A DNA stretch of 64,000 nucleotides from Eledone cirrhosa (lineage: Eukaryota), in NCBI GenBank assembly GCA_964016885.1, contig OZ024740.1, positions 426,994,001-427,058,000 of the forward strand, given 5' to 3'. Under the pieces are notes generated by a model. It had not been told where the DNA came from and did not search any database. It saw only the letters and a list, made by a program, of their open reading frames with translations. Within the stretch, counting starts at the first letter, position 1. Each line of letters opens with the position of its first letter. Positions 23,070 to 46,894 of the stretch are shown here, piece by piece. A program made the translations under genes and the position numbers.

Positions 23070-23140
23070 TGACGTACATGGGAGTCGAAACCACATCTTT
23101 GGTTATCCAGACCACTGTGCTACCATTACACCAACACATC
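23070..23140 (-). tRNA. tRNA-like sequence / pseudo-tRNA (anticodon loop CTGGATA)
   Basis: Acceptor GATGTGT/GTACGTC pairs with wobbles; D arm GTGT-AATGGTA-GCAC; TGGT/ACCA anticodon stem; GGTTTCGACTCC B box. Confidence 0.55.
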
Positions 23141-23370: not shown

Positions 23371-23441
23371 GATATGTTGGTGTAATGGTAGCACAGTGGT
23401 CTGGATAACCAAAGATGTGGATTCGACTCCCATGTACGTCA
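23371..23441 (+). tRNA. tRNA-like sequence / pseudo-tRNA followed by a T6 Pol III terminator
   Basis: Same cloverleaf as 23070-23140; TTTTTT at 23451-23456. Confidence 0.55.
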
Positions 23442-31929: not shown

Positions 31930-32230
31930 AATTTCAGGTTATCAATAATGTAGTGATAATATATCGTTACGTTAGAGATGAACAGCGTACGTGCAGGTTT
32001 GCTCAACGAGTATAAATTATATTCCGGAGAAATGTAGAAAGGATGAATATAAAATGAAAGTGCTTTTGTTAAAAAAGGAATCTATTAGGTATTGACATAT
32101 GTTTCTGTAACAGACCGAATACCTATGTATCGCTGCTTGCGTAATCATATAATGTTAGCAAGTATTCGATAGCAAATGTATAATCAGTTGTCACTTCTTC
32201 AGAGATTTTGGATAAAGCATCCTTTCTATA
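31930..32230 (-). mobile_element. HHR-bearing element with a very short inverted 5' arm, in (TA)n
   Basis: CATCCTTTCTA at ~32218 is inverted to TAGAAAGGATG at ~32035. Confidence 0.6.
32090..32207 (-). ncRNA. Hammerhead core with long stem II; stem I poor
   Basis: CTGAAGA-aGTGACA...TGTTACa-GAAAC-ATAT-GTC; palindrome ACATATGT. Confidence 0.55.
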
Positions 32231-32465
32231 TATATATATATATATAATTAAGTTAAAAATGTACATCCACATATGTATACTGAAATACTAGTATGCATAT
32301 GAATACACACACGTGTACATATGTAGATGTACCGAGTTTTCACTGGTCACTTTACTGTGAGTGTCCAGCTATTCTGTATGTAAACACACAGACAAACCGG
32401 TTCTTAGAGTCATACTGGTTTTTGAGGAAACACCTTTCCTCTATTCTCCAGAAAGCCAGACAAGG

Positions 32466-32510
32466 AATATTGGACTAGTTTCGATGTTGTTACATCTCAT
32501 CAGCAATATT
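32466..32510 (-). ncRNA. Canonical minimal type I hammerhead ribozyme (copy 2)
   Basis: AATATTG-CTGATGA-GATGT aaca ACATC-GAAAC-TA-GTC-CAATATT: 7-bp stem I, 5-bp stem II, palindrome ACTAGT, GUC. Confidence 0.92.
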
Positions 32511-32930
32511 TACCTATCTTCCGGCTTCTCTAGAGAATCGTGAAAGCACATATCGTTATATGCTTTTTCTATGAAAATTAGTAGTGGGCAGACCAATTTG
32601 CATAGAGCGTGAGTACGTACCGGTTCAACGGAGACGATAAAAACAAATAACGAAACGAAATTAAATTTCGTTTCGTTTGTAACTCACTTTTGTATGACTG
32701 ACGCTTAAACAATTAAGTTAAAAATGTACATCCACATATGTATACTGAAATACTAGTATGCATATGAATACACACACGTGTACATATGTAGATGTACCGA
32801 GTTTTCACTGGTCACTTTACTGTGAGTGTCCAGCTATTCTGTATGTAAACACACAGACAAACCGGTTCTTAGAGTCATACTGGTTTTTGAGGAAACACCT
32901 TTCCTCTATTCTCCAGAAAGCCAGACAAGG

Positions 32931-32975
32931 AATATTGGACTAGTTTCGATGTTGTTACATCTCATCAGCAATATT
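32931..32975 (-). ncRNA. Canonical minimal type I hammerhead ribozyme (copy 1)
   Basis: Identical to 32466-32510, offset 465 bp. Confidence 0.92.
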
Positions 32976-33207
32976 TACCTATCTTCCGGTTTGTCTGTGT
33001 GTTTACATACAGAATAGCTGGACACTCACAGTAAAGTGACCAGTGAAAACTCGGTACATCTACATATGTACACGTGTGTGTATTCATATGCATACTAGTA
33101 TTTCAGTATACATATGTGGATGTACATTTTTAACTTAATTGTTTAAGCGTCAGTCATACAAAAGTGAGTTACAAACGAAACGAAATTTAATTTCGTTTCG
33201 TTATTTG

Positions 33208-33254
<47 letters not shown>

Positions 33255-33258
<4 letters not shown>

Positions 33259-33998
33259 TAAAATAACAGATTAAAGTTTAAGCAAAGAATCGCTGCTTTG
33301 ACCCTTAACGGGATCTTCTGAAACTAACAAAGTCAATCTGTAAACGCAGAAGTGGATATTTTAAAAAACGTTGCAACCGGAGGAAGACAGGAAGACGATA
33401 CTTTGGTTCGTGGAAACGTTCGCTGGCAAAGAACGGGAAAAAACGAATAAGATACGTCATTAATAGGAGCGGTGAAAAACAATTACGCGCAAAGACAGAA
33501 CCACGTTTATGGTATAAAAGAGGTCGTAGACTAATGTTCTCTTAGGTGGTTCATAGAGACGTTCTCTGGCAATGAACGAAAAAAACGAAGATAATACGTC
33601 ATATGTGGAGCGTGGAGAACAATAGCACGCAAAGACAAAACCACGTAAATGGTATAGCAGAAGTCGTAGACAAAAATCTAACTAGGAGACCGAATGAATC
33701 TCCGCTACAGAGTTAAAAACAAAGTAAATAAATACAATACAGAAGTAATAGAAATAAATAAATACATACACGCAAACAAATACGTACATACACAAGCATA
33801 CGCAAAACACTTACCATAGGTATACAAAACCACGCACATATAAATATGTGTGTGTGTGTATGCGTGCATACAAATAAATAAATAAATAATTATATAAACG
33901 TAGATAAATAAATAAATACGTATATAACAAGCGCACAAACATACCTACATACCTTATCGAGCCCTCTTTGGATTTTAGTCTTGAAATTTATTATTATT
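33255..33998 (-). mobile_element. Inverted pLTR copy of the 35505-37040 PLE family plus a direct tail tip
   Basis: 33255-33950 is the reverse complement of ~36260-36952; 33952-33998 matches 36991-37037 directly. Confidence 0.85.
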
Positions 33999-34539
33999 AA
34001 TCTGCTCAGTATTTTTATACTTGGAGCTTAATAGTTACAGGGTTCCAATTGAGTTTTAACTCTAATTTTCATATATATTTCTGCTCCCTCACAAGTTGAG
34101 CTTATTAAGTTGTGTGTGTTGGACTGTTGTTTCTGTTCAATACACGCTTACCACGTTTGACTAGCGGAGCACGAGGTGACAAATTCATCTTTCTGTGTGA
34201 ACGTTGGCAAATAGTGTGTGTTGCATTTAATCAGATTCTCTCGCTGATGATGCCCAGGATTATCTGTTACAAACACACTCAGGGCGAAACAGATTAGGGA
34301 TAATCTGTCCGAGAGATATAATGGTTATTGAGGCGGTTTGTATAATAATAATAATATATTTTTATTTTATCATTCTGTCTGCTTCTTGGTTAAATATTTC
34401 AAACAAATGTGGTTTTTCAACCCTTGTAATTTTAGACACACGGCTTACTGTGTTTCTTACTATATATTATTAATCGGCTCAGTATTTTTATACTTGGAGC
34501 TTAATAGTTACAGGGTTCCAATTGAGTTTTAACTCTAAT

Positions 34540-34548
<9 letters not shown>
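33992..34548 (+). mobile_element. Retrozyme-like 473-bp monomer with ~80-bp terminal direct repeats and one HHR
   Basis: GCTCAGTATTTTTATACTTGGAGC...CTAATTTTCATATATA at 34004 and 34477; ends in long (TA)n. Confidence 0.85.
34237..34316 (+). ncRNA. Full type I hammerhead ribozyme with three complete stems
   Basis: Stem I TCTCTCG/CGAGAGA; CTGATGA 34244-34250 plus an extra T; stem II GCCC/GGGC; GAAA 34286-34289; stem III CAGATTA/TAATCTG; GUC, predicted cut after 34309. Confidence 0.92.
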
Positions 34549-34631
<83 letters not shown>

Positions 34632-34670
34632 GATATTAACAAATGGAAACTATATTTATAAAACCATATT

Positions 34671-34735
34671 TATTTCATTATACATATTTCAAGGATACCA
34701 AGTTAAATTATGGTATGCCTTCATCAGACAAAATA
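34671..34735 (-). ncRNA. Minimal hammerhead ribozyme
   Basis: TATTTTGT-CTGATGA-aggcATACCA...TGGTATccttGAAA-TATGTA-TA-ATGAAATA. Confidence 0.7.
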
Positions 34736-35051
34736 CAATATATACCAGTTTTTTAAATAAACATTGACGTACCCTTTCAAAATGCGACCGTTACTTTTGG
34801 AAGACATCAGGATAGTGGTTTGTTTATTTTAGTAAGTCGTTGTGTTAAGGATAAGTAAAAAGACTGAGAGAGAGAGAGAAACGTGGAGAAAAGAAAGGGA
34901 GAGATAAATAAAGAAAAAGAAGAAAGAAAAAAAACTCAAGAGAGAGAAATATAGAGATAGAGAGAGGGGAGAGAACGAAAACCTTAAGTCATGTCATATT
35001 AAGTTGAGTTAACAATTGAGATGAAATGAATAACAATTTAAATAGAACTTT

Positions 35052-35092
<41 letters not shown>

Positions 35093-35377
35093 TCCTTTTT
35101 TCTTTCTTTTTATTTCCTCCCATCTATTTACCTCTTTCTTTTCTACATGCATTTCTCTCTCTCTCCGATATTTCTCCAGGTTTTTTTTCTCTCTCTCCTT
35201 CTTTCTCTCTACTTCTCTCTCTCCGTCTTTTCTTTCTTTCTCTCCGTCTTTTTCTAATTGTGCTTAAAACTATAACTAATAAAATAATAAACATCTCACT
35301 ATCCAGACAGCTTCCAAAAATAATGGTTGCATCTAATAGGGTACGTCAAAATTATTTATAAAACTGTTTATATATTG

Positions 35378-35442
35378 TATTTTGTCTGATGAAGGCATAC
35401 CATATTTTAATTTGGTATTCCTGAAATATGTATAATGAAATA
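35378..35442 (+). ncRNA. Minimal hammerhead ribozyme
   Basis: Stem I TATTTTGT/ATGAAATA; CTGATGA 35386-35392; stem II AGGcATACCA/TGGTATtCCT; GAAA 35423-35426; AUA. Confidence 0.78.
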
Positions 35443-35504
35443 AATATGGTTTTATAAATATAGTTTCCATTTATTAATATCGTATATATATATATATATA
35501 TATA

Positions 35505-37040
35505 TATTTATTAAAATAACAGATTAAAGTTTAAACAAAGAATCGCTGCTTTCACCTAGAGACGACTCTATTTGGATTAAAAAATCCAATAGTACCCCAT
35601 TCGATGTGTGTATGGGCGCCAGTGATTCTACGGAGGTTACTGATCTTATCGGCCTTTACCTTCTTTTCTCTATCAAGGACGAATTCCCCAACGCGGGCGG
35701 TGGTTTGTACCGTGACGATGGTCTTTTGACCATGACTAAGTGCGGACCTCGTGCTTGCGACAGGTTCAGAAAAGAACTCACAGCCTTCTTTAAAGGCTTC
35801 AACCTCTATACAGGTATACCTCTCGGTCGTTAATTACCTCGACGTTACCCTCAACTTATTGAATGGGTTGTATTACCCGTATAGAAAGCCGAATGATACG
35901 CTTAATTACATAAGTAAGCATTCCAACCATCCTGCCAGCATAACCAAGAACCTGGTAAGAAACGTTTCGTTGAGGCTTTCCCGTATTTCCACCAACGAGC
36001 GTATTTTGAACGACCATTCCACTTATTACAGGTATATATTATCCGTATGTTTTGTGAAGGTACGTATACTTTCTCGTACGTATATTTGATTGTTATGGCG
36101 TATCATTTTTTTTATATATTCTGGTACATATGGTTCGGCTATGTGTATGCGGGAGTTTTGCGTCTGTATGAGTATGCAGGTTCGTACGTATGTAAGGCGT
36201 GTGTATATGTGTACTTCATGTTTTGGTTGACTTACGTCTCCGAACATTTGGGTATTTACATGTAGGTATGTGTGTGCGCTTGTTATATACGTATTTATTT
36301 ATTTATATGTTTATATAATTATTTATTTATTTGTATACACGCTTACACACACACACACATATTTATATGTGCGTGGTTTTGTTTCCTATGGTAAGTTTTT
36401 GCGTATGCTTGTGTATGTACGTATTTGTTTGCGTGTATGTATTTATTTATTTCTATTACTTCTGTATTGTATTTATTTACTTTGTTCTTAACTCCGTAGC
36501 GGAGATTCTTTCGGTCTCCTAGTTAGAATTTAGTCTACGACTTCTGCTATACCATTTACGTGGTTTTGTCTTTGCGTACTATTGTTCTCCACGCCCCACA
36601 TATGACGTATTATCTTCGTTTTTTTCGTTCATTGCCAGAGAACGTCTCTATGCACCACCTAAGAGAACATTAGTCTACGACCTCTTTTATACCATAAACG
36701 TGGTTCTGTCTTTGCGCGTAATTGTTTTTCACCGTTCCTATTAATGACGTATCATATTCGTTTTTTCCCGTTCTTAGCCAGCGAACGTTTCCACGAACCA
36801 AAGTATCGTCTTCCTGTCTTCCTCCGGTTGCAACGTTTTTTGAAATATCCAGTTCTGCGTTTACAGATTGACTTTGGTAGTTTCAGAAGATCCCGTTAAG
36901 GGTGAAAGCAGAGATTCTTTGCTTAAACTTTAATCTGTTAATTTAATAAATATTTGCTCTACGGTTCTTATATATTTGATATATATTTATCCTTATCGAG
37001 CCCTCTTTGGATTTTAGTCTTCAAATTTATTATTATTACT
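35505..37040 (+). mobile_element. Naiad-type PLE, 5'-truncated with a 50-bp inverted pLTR tip and an internal deletion
   Basis: 35505-35556 is inverted to 36901-36952; RT fragment joins directly to the 3' non-coding region at ~36030; (TA)n on both sides. Confidence 0.85.
35557..36030 (+). pseudogene. Naiad-type RT fragment (one frameshift)
   Basis: W.KK..PFDVCMGASDSTEVTDLIGL..GGLYRDDGL / VNYLDVTLNL..PYRKPND..YISKHSNHPASI..RLSRIS. Confidence 0.9.
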
Positions 37041-41359: not shown

Positions 41360-41547
41360 GGAACACTGTTGGCTTATATATATATATTATGGAATACTAA
41401 TGGTTTTCGCTACAATGTTTTCTATACCTTTCATTTATATATATATAAATATATATATGTATATATGGAATTCCTTTTATTAATATAATCTTTTATACAC
41501 AATCATACACACCCGTGTATATTTATTTATATCTATATATCTATATG

Positions 41548-44433
41548 TATTAGAAAGATCGAGTATCGAAAAATCGGCGCACGAGTTCACGATAAACAAA
41601 ATTCGAAATGAGCGGCAGAGGGCTCAATAATTCAGATGAATCAGAGCTATAACTATCGTTAAAATACCGTCTCATATAGAACAAGTCTACAATCAACCAT
41701 ACGATAAAAAATCGATAAAGGAAGATTCGGGACAAACAGATAAAAAATATCAATAAAACAATACATCAATAATTTAAATGAATGTAAAATCATACCCGGA
41801 CCCACTAGAAAGGTGTTAAATCTAGCTTCATGGGTTTCTGTAAATCCTTAGACTGTACTCTATCAGCTCACATATAAATATAAAAGCCTACTAGAGTAAG
41901 CGGAACGGAGTTTACTTTCTCAACGAGCTTTTTTCCTAGCGGAAAAGGGGCCAACTACCAGTGAAAAACGCACATGGCATTAGACAAGGGAGATAACCCC
42001 TATATCCGCGAAAACAATTCGAGGGAATGTGGAAATACACATATCGAATAAGAGTGCTCAATAGACATGTTAAAATAAAACAAAAGCTATTCATCACTCA
42101 ATAGAATCGACAAAAAATGAGCAATAAAATTAACTGGTGGATAGCTATGTCCAGAGCTAAAAATATTAGAAAGATCGAGTATCGAAAAATCGGCGCACGA
42201 GTTCACGATAAACAAAATTCGAAATGAGCGGCAGAGGGCTCAATAATTCAGATGAATCAGAGCTATAACTATCGTTAAAATACCGTCTCATATAGAACAA
42301 GTCTACAATCAACCATACGATAAAAAATCGATAAAGGAAGATTCGGGACAAACAGATAAAAAATATCAATAAAACAATACATCAATAATTTAAATGAATG
42401 TAAAATCATACCCGGACCCACTAGAAAGGTGTTAAATCTAGCTTCATGGGTTTCTGTAAATCCTTAGACTGTACTCTATCAGCTCACATATAAATATAAA
42501 AGCCTACTAGAGTAAGCGGAACGGAGTTTACTTTCTCAACGAGCTTTTTTCCTAGCGGAAAAGGGGCCAACTACCAGTGAAAAACGCACATGGCATTAGA
42601 CAAGGGAGATAACCCCTATATCCGCGAAAACAATTCGAGGGAATGTGGAAATACACATATCGAATAAGAGTGCTCAATAGACATGTTAAAATAAAACAAA
42701 AGCTATTCATCACTCAATAGAATCGACAAAAAATGAGCAATAAAATTAACTGGTGGATAGCTATGTCCAGAGCTAAAAATATTAGAAAGATCGAGTATCG
42801 AAAAATCGGCGCACGAGTTCACGATAAACAAAATTCGAAATGAGCGGCAGAGGGCTCAATAATTCAGATGAATCAGAGCTATAACTATCGTTAAAATACC
42901 GTCACATATAGAACAAGTCTACAATCAACCATACGATAAAAAATCGATAAAGGAAGATTCGGGACAAACAGATAAAAAATATCAATAAAACAATACATCA
43001 ATAATTTAAATGAATGTAAAATCATACCCGGACCCACTAGAAAGGTGTTAAATCTAGCTTCATGGGTTTCTGTAAATCCTTAGACTGTACTCTATCAGCT
43101 CACATATAAATATAAAAGCCTACTAGAGTAAGCGGAACGGAGTTTACTTTCTCAACGAGCTTTTTTCCTAGCGGAAAAGGGGCCAACTACCAGTGAAAAA
43201 CGCACATGGCATTAGACAAGGGAGATAACCCCTATATCCGCGAAAACAATTCGAGGGAATGTGGAAATACACATATCGAATAAGAGTGCTCAATAGACAT
43301 GTTAAAATAAAACAAAAGCTATTCATCACTCAATAGAATCGACAAAAAATGAGCAATAAAATTAACTGGTGGATAGCTATGTCCAGAGCTAAAAATATTA
43401 GAAAGATCGAGTATCGAAAAATCGGCGCACGAGTTCACGATAAACAAAATTCGAAATGAGCGGCAGAGGGCTCAATAATTCAGATGAATCAGAGCTATAA
43501 CTATCGTTAAAATACCGTCACATATAGAACAAGTCTACAATCAACCATACGATAAAAAATCGATAAAGGAAGATTCGGGACAAACAGATAAAAAATATCA
43601 ATAAAACAATACATCAATAATTTAAATGAATGTAAAATCATACCCGGACCCACTAGAAAGGTGTTAAATCTAGCTTCATGGGTTTCTGTAAATCCTTAGA
43701 CTGTACTCTATCAGCTCACATATAAATATAAAAGCCTACTAGAGTAAGCGGAACGGAGTTTACTTTCTCAACGAGCTTTTTTCCTAGCGGAAAAGGGGCC
43801 AACTACCAGTGAAAAACGCACATGGCATTAGACAAGGGAGATAACCCCTATATCCGCGAAAACAATTCGAGGGAATGTGGAAATACACATATCGAATAAG
43901 AGTGCTCAATAGACATGTTAAAATAAAACAAAAGCTATTCATCACTCAATAGAATCGACAAAAAATGAGCAATAAAATTAACTGGTGGATAGCTATGTCC
44001 AGAGCTAAAAATATTAGAAAGATCGAGTATCGAAAAATCGGCGCACGAGTTCACGATAAACAAAATTCGAAATGAGCGGCAGAGGGCTCAATAATTCAGA
44101 TGAATCAGAGCTATAACTATCGTTAAAATACCGTCACATATAGAACAAGTCTACAATCAACCATACGATAAAAAATCGATAAAGGAAGATTCGGGACAAA
44201 CAGATAAAAAATATCAATAAAACAATACATCAATAATTTAAATGAATGTAAAATCATACCCGGACCCACTAGAAAGGTGTTAAATCTAGCTTCATGGGTT
44301 TCTGTAAATCCTTAGACTGTACTCTATCAGCTCACATATAAATATAAAAGCCTACTAGAGTAAGCGGAACGGAGTTTACTTTCTCAACGAGCTTTTTTCC
44401 TAGCGGAAAAGGGGCCAACTACCAGTGAAAAAC
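41548..44433. repeat. 616-bp tandem array, ~4.7 near-identical copies
   Basis: Unit starts at 41548, 42164, 42780, 43396, 44012; one visible variant (CCGTCTCATA in units 1-2, CCGTCACATA in units 3-5). Confidence 0.97.
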
Positions 44434-44938: not shown

Positions 44939-45363
44939 TCATTAGTTAAGCAAAACAACACCACAAATTTCCACTGAACCAGATCAATTATGATATATAG
45001 TCATCTGATCCAGAAATATTATATGGAGTAGCGAAACAATTGTAAACGGACATTATTATTATCAATATTATTATTATTATTATTATTATTCTCTACATTC
45101 CTTACATCAAACTAAAATATGTTGACAATCTTTTAATAATGTCTTCCTTGTGAACTTTGTGGTCTTGTTTTGCTTAACTAATGAATATTTCCAGCTCTGC
45201 GCACCTAACTTCTGCATGAACCCAGCTACCTGGCTGCTTTCTACTGCATATTGCACATTGAGCACATGCTTTTACGCTTTGGCTTCTAACTAATTCACCA
45301 ATCTCTCCTCTCATATCTCCTCTCCTATCTCCATCTCTCGCTTTAAGATTGGTTACTCTTGAA

Positions 45364-45367
<4 letters not shown>
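44937..45367 (+). mobile_element. Element with short inverted arms and a tail, between (TA)n tracts
   Basis: CATTAGTTAAGCAAAACAA.ACCACAAA inverted at ~45157-45184. Confidence 0.55.
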
Positions 45368-45451
<84 letters not shown>

Positions 45452-45562
45452 ATATGTATATATGTATGTACGTTTGTATGTATGAATGTATGTATGTATG
45501 AATGTATGTATGTGGAAAAATTCAACGGCCATCCAGAAATGTGTATATGTGTATATACATGT

Positions 45563-46894
45563 ATGCATAAAACATTGATAGAATTTAATGACCAACTATG
45601 GACCAGAGCAGATAGAGATAGCAATTTTGACATTACTATGGGATCATCCGACTCAGCTCAGGTAACTGACCTTGTGGGCTTATTTTTAATCAATTCGCTA
45701 CATAGGAAAATACCTGGTACTACCGGAGGTTTATATAGGGATGACATGCTTTTACTTATTAATAATAATAACCCTGAACTAAATAGAAAATGTAAACAAA
45801 TTACAAAATTTTTTAATTACTTTAACCTTAAAATAGAAATTGAGAACAACCATAGAATAGTCAATTTCCTAGATATAACATTAAATCTCAACACACGTCT
45901 CCACTATCCTTTTCACAAGTTGAATGAAAACTTAAACTATGTCAACTTTAACTCTAACCACCCCAGATCTGTCAAAAACACTATAGTAAACTCAGTTCAA
46001 AAACGTATCTCTAGGATCTCGTCGAATAGAAAGATTTTCGACGAAAAGGCCCAATACTATAATGAAGCATTAGCTAGGGCAGGATATGCTGATAAGATTG
46101 TGTACATAGATAATGATAGACAAACTAAACAAAGTAACAACTTTTTTAATTACGGCTACAACATTAACAACTATAATAGAAAGCATCACAATAATTCCAA
46201 AGGCCAAAAAAGAAATAGAACTAGGAACATAATTTGGTTTGCCCCCCCTTTCTCACTAAACATTAAAACCCACATCGCTAAATTATTTTTCAAAGCTCTT
46301 GATAATCGCTTCCCTAGAACACATAGGTATCACTCAATTTTCAATAGGCATACAATTAAATTAACCTACTCATCCACCAAAAATTTAGCACAAAATATTA
46401 ATAGGATAAATAATAGGAACTTAAAACCTAGTGATAATAGCATAAATAATATACAATTTAACAAATGTAACTGTAGAGATAGATCTAAATGTCCGTTAAA
46501 TAACAACTGCTTAGTTAAAAATATAGTATACAATTGTAATGTTAATACTGACTCTAATTCTTTTAATTACGTCGGTTCCACATCGACGGAATTTAAACTT
46601 CGCTATAATAACCACAAGAATTCTTTCACAGATCCAAGTAAAAAATCTTCAACGGCACTATCAGGCGTACTCTGGCAACTTAAGGTAGATAACGTTAGAT
46701 ATTCGACGGTTTGGAATATAGTTTCAAGAGGGATTCCTTTTAATTCATCCTCTGAGACATGTGACCTCTGCGCAGAGGAGATATTCTTTATACTAAAATC
46801 TAAAAATTCCCTTAACCTACGGACAAATTTATTCAGTTGTTGCAAACATAGATTAAACTCAACGTTTAAATATAAATTTAAATTTAAAATGTAG
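45563..46894 (+). CDS. Naiad-type Penelope-like RT (C-half) plus GIY-YIG endonuclease, 5'-truncated, 443 aa uninterrupted
   Basis: [91 protein letters not shown]. Confidence 0.95.

Follow-up and report, generated by a model that had tools for sequence, protein, structure and literature searches.

A candidate off-switch in loop II of a hammerhead ribozyme from a likely retrozyme family of Eledone cirrhosa

The hammerhead motif at positions 34237–34316 (+) of the window, a 64,000-nucleotide stretch of Eledone cirrhosa contig OZ024740.1, belongs to a repeat family in which loop II of the ribozyme is complementary to the strand just upstream. From folding models, we propose with about even confidence that the locus is a dispersed copy of a non-LTR retrozyme whose loop II serves as an off-switch by pairing with this upstream strand (U). 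The original prediction had read loop II as a mimic of the substrate strand. The pairing capacity of this mimic stands, while the repeat family and a stronger partner upstream had gone unnoticed. The features of the locus are listed in Table 1.

Table 1. Features of the element and its ribozyme (window positions).
Feature	Position	Strand	Description
Element	33992–34551	+	560 nt, ~1.17 units of a ~468–473-nt noncoding repeat
Upstream strand U	34214–34232	+	In-register complement of loop II 34258–34276
Stem I, 5' strand (TCTCTCG)	34237–34243	+	Pairs with CGAGAGA 34310–34316; 7 bp
Core C3–A9 and extra nucleotide	34244–34251	+	CTGATGA 34244–34250, extra T 34251
Stem II and loop II	34252–34285	+	GCCC 34252–34255 / GGGC 34282–34285
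Mimic (conserved loop II segment)	34257–34268	+	Can pair with the upstream strand or the stem III 5' arm
ACAAACAC	34269–34276	+	8-bp partner of 34214–34221; 7/8 in this copy
GAAA, stem III, and GUC triplet	34286–34309	+	GAAA 34286–34289
Stem I 3' strand, bulge, and stem I extension	34310–34334	+	Extension pairs with 34220–34237 in the active fold
(TA)n tract at element 3' end	34544–34630	.	Likely insertion target

Architecture of the ribozyme

Direct reading of the sequence reveals a complete type I hammerhead, in which the core (CUGANGA, GAAA, and UH) joins three helices and stem I is open. The three complete stems, the GUC triplet, and the extra U after A9 of the original prediction are all borne out. 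Stem II is 4 bp in length, with G10.1-C11.1 intact, and encloses a 26-nucleotide loop II (34256–34281). The strands of stem III (CAGATTA, 34290–34296, and TAATCTG, 34301–34307) are joined by the loop GGGA, and the stem comes to 8 bp when A15.1-U16.1 is counted. Cleavage is predicted between 34309 and 34310, after the GUC triplet. The hammerhead is the minimum free energy fold of 34225–34330 (−27.2 kcal/mol, z −2.09), and stems I–III are completely paired in the majority sequences of all five subfamily classes. The extra U is standard in Penelope hammerheads (PMC4209133); this nucleotide is A instead of U in 10 of the 15 young copies found by pattern. The Rfam hammerhead models did not match the motif at the gathering threshold, nor at E≤5 within 32000–35000, and the long loop II together with the insertion is the likely cause as judged from the sequence. 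Eight of nine predicted Xenopus retrozymes did not cut in vitro (10.64898/2026.07.22.740005).

The element and its repeat family

The first 87 nucleotides of the element (33992–34078) are repeated at 34465–34551 with 98.9% identity, forming a partial tandem that resembles a pseudo-LTR. The locus carries a single ribozyme, as compared with the at least two consecutive ribozymes of elements termed 'active' by Li et al., and is a solo offspring copy. With one ribozyme, it could be cut once and would not be released as a unit by double cleavage.

Related copies are numerous in the 3.0-Gb genome. Exact-pattern searches gave 220, 319, and 905 matches, the last with the stem III pattern, and none in the reversed controls. 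A DNA similarity search returned 1335 candidates, and among the best 40 scored, full-length copies were 98–100% identical. Elsewhere in the genome, copies occur singly or in tandem arrays with a spacing of 466–468 nt, and both orientations are present in 59 of 120 fetched loci (overlapping loci counted separately). Nine distinct natural monomers, taken from cut to cut, are 424–487 nt in length, and at the level of the family each tandem unit carries a type I hammerhead. No open reading frame of at least 130 amino acids lies over the element, and the GC content is 0.32 in 34001–36000, which agrees with the low-GC, noncoding character of non-LTR retrozymes. The family also has the partial-tandem ends, inverted 5'-truncated partner, and microsatellite target typical of nonautonomous Penelope-like elements; 84 of 118 distinct 3' ends in the fetched loci lie at (TA)≥5. 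These elements are likely non-LTR retrozymes moved by Penelope-like elements.

The nucleotides at 33952–33999 are the end of a far more abundant repeat. This end is usually followed by (TA)n, into which the element appears to have inserted. A 700-nt inverted repeat (33251–33950 and 36260–36953, 95% identity) flanks the element and its neighbors. Sequencing contigs of a second organism contain a GGGA-type ribozyme region identical over 34256–34350.

An autonomous parent was sought among Penelope-type sequences, with one abundant family compared in detail, and none was identified. One very abundant young family (69163 candidates with the query fragment L004:1792-2994) has many open reading frames of ~784 amino acids, and its best 144 scored candidates are 94–100% identical. 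We take this family to be 'Hydra-type' from its CxCx5C motif and TA targeting. Both traits are described for the Hydra clade (10.1101/2021.04.23.441226). No homology to the unit was seen in the flanks of this family: 30 of its loci contained no match to the unit other than inserted units. No family-wide hammerhead was detected by motif scan within 1.5 kb of its matches, Pfam gave no real match for two fragments, and 31 loci with Penelope-type fragments had no consistent open reading frame directly upstream of the units. Within the window, a 515-codon open frame at 45347–46894 (+) is 5'-truncated after a (TA)n tract. Its 3' part resembles a Penelope-type reverse transcriptase thumb, CxCx5C linker, and endonuclease, and is 33–34% identical to the L004 fragment.

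Subfamilies and inversion of loop III

The copies fall into five classes by loop III (AATCTC-type, AATCCC/A, 5-nt, TCCC, and GGGA), with a mean divergence of up to 0.228, between the AATCTC-type and GGGA classes. A 58-row tree with midpoint root places the GGGA copies together in one clade (100/99) that arises from among the TCCC copies. GGGA is the reverse complement of TCCC, which marks the loop of the GGGA class as an inversion of the ancestral TCCC loop. GGGA is the largest class listed, with 40 exact copies and 4 one-letter variants among the first 100 of the 905 matches, as compared with 5 for TCCC.

Two side observations concern the extremes of this series. A young GGGA sub-branch (L102, L103, L105, and L107) has A in place of the extra U, 17 of 19 pairs in the upstream duplex, and a weaker stem I extension. 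The strongest block is predicted for these copies (stem II probability 0.002), which are nevertheless common and tandem. In the two oldest classes (e.g., L140, L141, and L146), the 5' part of loop II is ACGGATTATCTGTT, a near-palindrome identical at 12 of 14 positions to stem III minus its loop, which might permit pairing between tandem units.

Conservation of loop II

Conservation was assessed in 69 distinct copies from loci found by patterns that left loop II free; 30 loci picked by similarity and those from protein searches were set aside. The mimic is conserved among these genomic copies, as the original prediction had asked, with its 11-mer exact in 60 of 69. The class-majority base is constant at 11 of 11 mimic positions, as compared with changes in 98 of 268 background columns (P about 0.007). 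Other invariant runs of 9–12 nt occur outside the ribozyme, at 34097, 34170, 34416, and 34444, so conservation alone is not special; by itself, it names no partner.

These runs also count in favor of a reading in which the complementarities of loop II are relics with no role in switching. Local inverted copying by the reverse transcriptase would then have made loop II complementary to both of its neighbors, and the loop would have been kept, for example, as an internal promoter, a binding site for a protein or the reverse transcriptase, or a tertiary contact. The inversion of loop III demonstrates that such events happen in the family, and the lack of covariation described below fits this explanation as well. 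Against it, complementarity to the upstream strand is kept at 15–17 of 19 positions while 37% of background columns have changed, and the variable upstream positions are mainly those that are mismatched or wobble. We regard this explanation as distinctly unlikely.

Pairing of loop II with the upstream strand

U and loop II form 15 of 19 possible pairs in this copy and 15–17 of 19 in all five class majorities. A typical copy has 15 Watson-Crick pairs among the 19 (shuffle P=0.001 over the unit), and 418 exact genomic matches contain both duplex strands together. The 8-mer GTGTTTGT is invariant in all classes, with variable flanks. Beyond the 8-bp helix, 7 of 11 further positions pair in register (P=0.007–0.019). 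Class changes at paired sites mostly keep the pair and are one-sided (U-A to U-G, A-U to G-U, and G-U to A-U), although one class loses a G-U pair. No double-sided covariation occurs in the duplex among the five classes, and most pairs never vary; pairing is thus not proven by covariation. The mimic positions 34263–34264 are conserved yet unpaired in the duplex. The G at 34218 is a private change of this copy (T in the family; 41/41 and 22/22 sequencing reads) and weakens the helix between U and loop II to −11.7 kcal/mol, as compared with −15.4 kcal/mol in L058. Across copies, this helix has energies of −10 to −18 kcal/mol, versus −6 to −12 kcal/mol for pairing with the stem III arm.

The 3' part of U also takes part in the stem I extension, through pairing with 34320–34334 (11–14 of 14 pairs, with one A-U/U-A swap). 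As U is common to both helices, the two folds compete. Eleven of the 19 U positions pair in the stem I extension as well, which provides a second explanation for their conservation. The full 19-position helix would be incompatible with stem II on geometric grounds, since the linker between its far end and the stem II 3' strand is a mere 5 nt in length.

The first six nucleotides of U are unpaired in the stem I extension, yet invariant across classes. This pattern would be explained by a different role for the upstream strand, in which a 6–8-bp pseudoknot between upstream GTGTTT(GT) and loop II (AC)AAACAC acts as an activating clamp in the folded ribozyme. Such a clamp would hold stems I and II parallel and replace the usual contact between loops 1 and 2, with the mimic as a conserved linker running along the stem I extension. 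A rough estimate of distances would permit the helix. About 40% of hammerheads are predicted to have a pseudoknot between stems I and II, and such contacts are described as needed for fast cleavage (PMC3088659). A clamp leaves the seven further in-register pairs (P=0.007–0.019) unexplained. We consider it possible but doubtful as an explanation on its own; it is also compatible with the off-switch.

Folding calculations favor the off-switch after cleavage. These were carried out with ViennaRNA, which omits pseudoknots and Mg2+-dependent tertiary contacts, both of which favor the active fold. In the 5' cleavage product, the median probability of loop II pairing upstream is 0.87, 0.77, 0.80, 0.74, and 0.39 by class, the last being the oldest, and that of stem II is 0.00. 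For the nine natural monomers folded as circles, stem II has a probability of ≤0.23 in 9/9, and loop II pairs upstream at ≥0.59 in 7/9. In the remaining two, the mimic occupies stem III, at 0.12 in one and at 0.99 in the other, whose core and upstream strand are broken. When the six outer upstream nucleotides were replaced in silico, the probability of stem II increased in 7/7 copies tried; in the copy at 34237–34316, it went from 0.36 to 0.94. Before cleavage, loop II pairs upstream at only 0.01–0.02 in the two oldest classes and at 0.28–0.46 in two others, and other registers compete with the duplex. The result shifts with temperature and with the edges of the folded segment: in this copy, stem II is at 0.71 in 34200–34345 versus 0.36 in 34195–34350.

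Two other partners for loop II were rejected. CAGAT (34232–34236) pairs with ATCTG at 0.59 in the full element here, but is variable among classes and so does not serve as a general partner. Pairing of loop II ATTAT with a downstream ATAAT had a probability of 0.000 and is broken in the oldest class.

Pairing of loop II with stem III

The mimic is nearly identical to the substrate strand at 34298–34309, as had been pointed out, matching it at 10 of 12 positions (loop shuffle P=0.0004, post hoc). Within stem III alone, the match is 7 of 9 (P=0.035, loop shuffle, post hoc). Equally, the mimic can pair with AACAGAT, to which it is Watson-Crick complementary over 7 nt (shuffle P=0.004, or 0.009 allowing any strand; post hoc). 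The original prediction proposed on this basis a two-state switch or auto-inhibition, in which loop II would enter stem III in place of the substrate strand. In the older subfamilies, loop III would provide a toehold for such invasion.

The seven pairs are present in all five classes, and in the four older classes they extend into loop III. There, the complementarity of loop II covers both the stem III 5' arm and loop III, at a median of −8.6 to −12.1 kcal/mol (shuffle P≤0.003), and comes to 11–12 pairs in example copies of three of these classes. In the GGGA class, only the 7 pairs to the stem III arm are present, at −6.2 kcal/mol. The toehold was thus lost by loop inversion in what is the largest listed class, and is therefore dispensable for spread. 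The seven pairs themselves never vary, and stem III is conserved in any case.

Folding divides along the same lines. TCCC copies folded without upstream sequence place the mimic on stem III at a median probability of 0.56–0.58, with values >0.1 in 6/7 copies, and nascent TCCC transcripts do so at 0.22; one decayed monomer, noted above, does so at 0.99. For this class folded alone, the displacement put forward originally is upheld. It fails for the copy at 34237–34316, where stem III stays >0.9 in all folding contexts tried and the probability of the mimic helix falls from 0.012 in the 80-mer to 0.009 in a 146-nt segment and 0.001 in the complete 560-nt element, whether linear or folded as a circle. 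In the 80-mer, the ensemble with the mimic helix lies 2.5 kcal/mol above the three-stem fold. More broadly, the mimic helix exceeds 0.05 in 9 of 80 aligned copies with context and 0.1 in 4 of 27 old copies. Once the upstream strand is present, its median is ≤0.008 in every class, with 3/7 TCCC copies remaining >0.1. By these models, the mimic on stem III appears to be a real ancestral side fold that is dispensable and weak at 34237–34316, and we consider a switch that works through stem III invasion very unlikely.

A tandem duplication as the origin of stem III, also suggested originally, found no support. The GGA of the match derives from loop inversion, so that 3 of the 10 letters common to the mimic and the substrate strand are of recent origin. 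No resemblance extends into the flanks. The ancestral relation between the two segments reads as an inverted match and not as a tandem copy.

Proposed mechanism

In the off-switch that we favor, tandem copies would be transcribed, and the strand 3' of the cut site would pair in stem I and its long extension, occupying U. The ribozyme is then predicted to fold and to cut after GUC. Departure of the 3' product would free 34214–34232 to pair with loop II over up to 19 positions, and this helix would exclude stem II, such that the core falls apart and stem III stays. By analogy with the retrozyme literature, the unit-length RNA would be closed by a host ligase into a mostly blocked circle, which a Penelope-type reverse transcriptase/endonuclease would copy into (TA)n sites. 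The mimic would be the 5' part of the loop strand that pairs upstream, and in the GGGA subfamily it would engage stem III only as a minor side fold.

The upstream and stem III partners may also be combined in a three-strand switch, in which loop II has two exclusive partners, the upstream 19-mer and the stem III arm with loop III. The upstream helix would clamp the active ribozyme as a short pseudoknot, zip up to 19 positions after cleavage, and lock the circle off; across the subfamily series, one partner would have been lost through loop inversion as the other grew stronger. We think this composite unlikely.

Comparison with known systems

As in metazoan non-LTR retrozymes (Cervera and de la Pena 2020, PMC7229834; Li et al. 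2026, 10.64898/2026.07.22.740005), the family has a type I hammerhead in each short, low-GC, noncoding tandem unit, occurs as monomers to multimers, and co-occurs with Penelope-like elements. The unit of 463–487 nt is at or just above the 150–450 nt quoted for them, and the 26-nt loop II sets the family apart. Stem III has 8 bp, where most animal motifs have 1–2 bp, and the ribozyme does not need to dimerize. The family is predicted to be blocked by self-pairing, which among animal circles is reported only for some from mussel (PMC7229834).

Plant LTR retrozymes (PMC4918200) and hammerhead viroids (PMC7229834) likewise have a ribozyme whose most stable fold is predicted to be blocked through pairing with a complementary strand. 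However, those ribozymes are type III and this one is type I, and the plant elements have LTRs where this family has tandem units. In addition, the blocker here pairs with loop II and leaves stem III in place, whereas that of plant retrozymes and viroids pairs with most of the motif.

In comparison with the pseudo-LTR hammerheads of Penelope elements (PMC4209133; Hydra clade, 10.1101/2021.04.23.441226), which have the minimal form, the ribozyme here has a full monomeric stem III and a 6–7-bp stem I. The unit also has no reverse transcriptase/endonuclease open reading frame, and it did not match the flanks of the single abundant autonomous family with which it was compared. Its insertion structure is nonetheless like that of Penelope-like elements (10.1101/2021.04.23.441226). 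As in pseudoknotted hammerheads (Perreault et al. 2011, PMC3088659), loop II could form base pairs with the stem I region, but the complementarity here spans 19 positions, and a helix of this length could not form together with stem II. A literature search that covered few subscription papers found no account of this family or of a natural substrate mimic in loop II. A pattern scan of metagenomes gave at least 120 matching stretches, which are probably due to chance.

Other sequences in the window

A second, unrelated hammerhead family is represented by a pair of identical type I motifs of the HH9-like kind (32450–32521 and 32915–32986, −), with a spacing of 465 nt and an Rfam score of 38.9 bits (E 1.2e-07), below gathering. 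They have a palindromic ACTAGT stem III in a dimer-type layout, and their unit carries an inverted segment. With two tandem ribozymes, the locus at 32450–32986 could release a unit. Minimal hammerhead-like motifs (CTGANGA...GAAA with an AT-rich palindromic stem III) occur at 35386 (+), 34727 (−), and 37260 (−), two of them within an inverted repeat (34595–34775 and 35338–35518); these are probably other Penelope-type ends. Near-identical tRNA-like sequences in inverted orientation (23070–23140, −, and 23371–23441, +) are likely heads of tRNA-derived SINEs or pseudogenes. The window also contains 61 copies of a 41-nt satellite (1–2514) and an array in which a 616-nt unit is repeated five times (41530–44293, ~97% identity); a motif scan detected no hammerhead in the array.

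Significance

How the circles of animal retrozymes avoid cutting themselves is stated to be open in the Discussion of PMC7229834. Most animal circles are predicted there to have a free hammerhead, and a block other than self-pairing is inferred. Elements of this class, an extra nucleotide in the core, and hammerheads blocked by self-pairing have all been described before. To these, our models add what is likely a new retrozyme family, with an unusually long stem III and a block in cis. The gain is a well-defined test case rather than a new kind of system: the family offers a short, testable candidate for a cis block, and its five natural subfamilies, among which the two competing helices vary, lend themselves to parallel assays.
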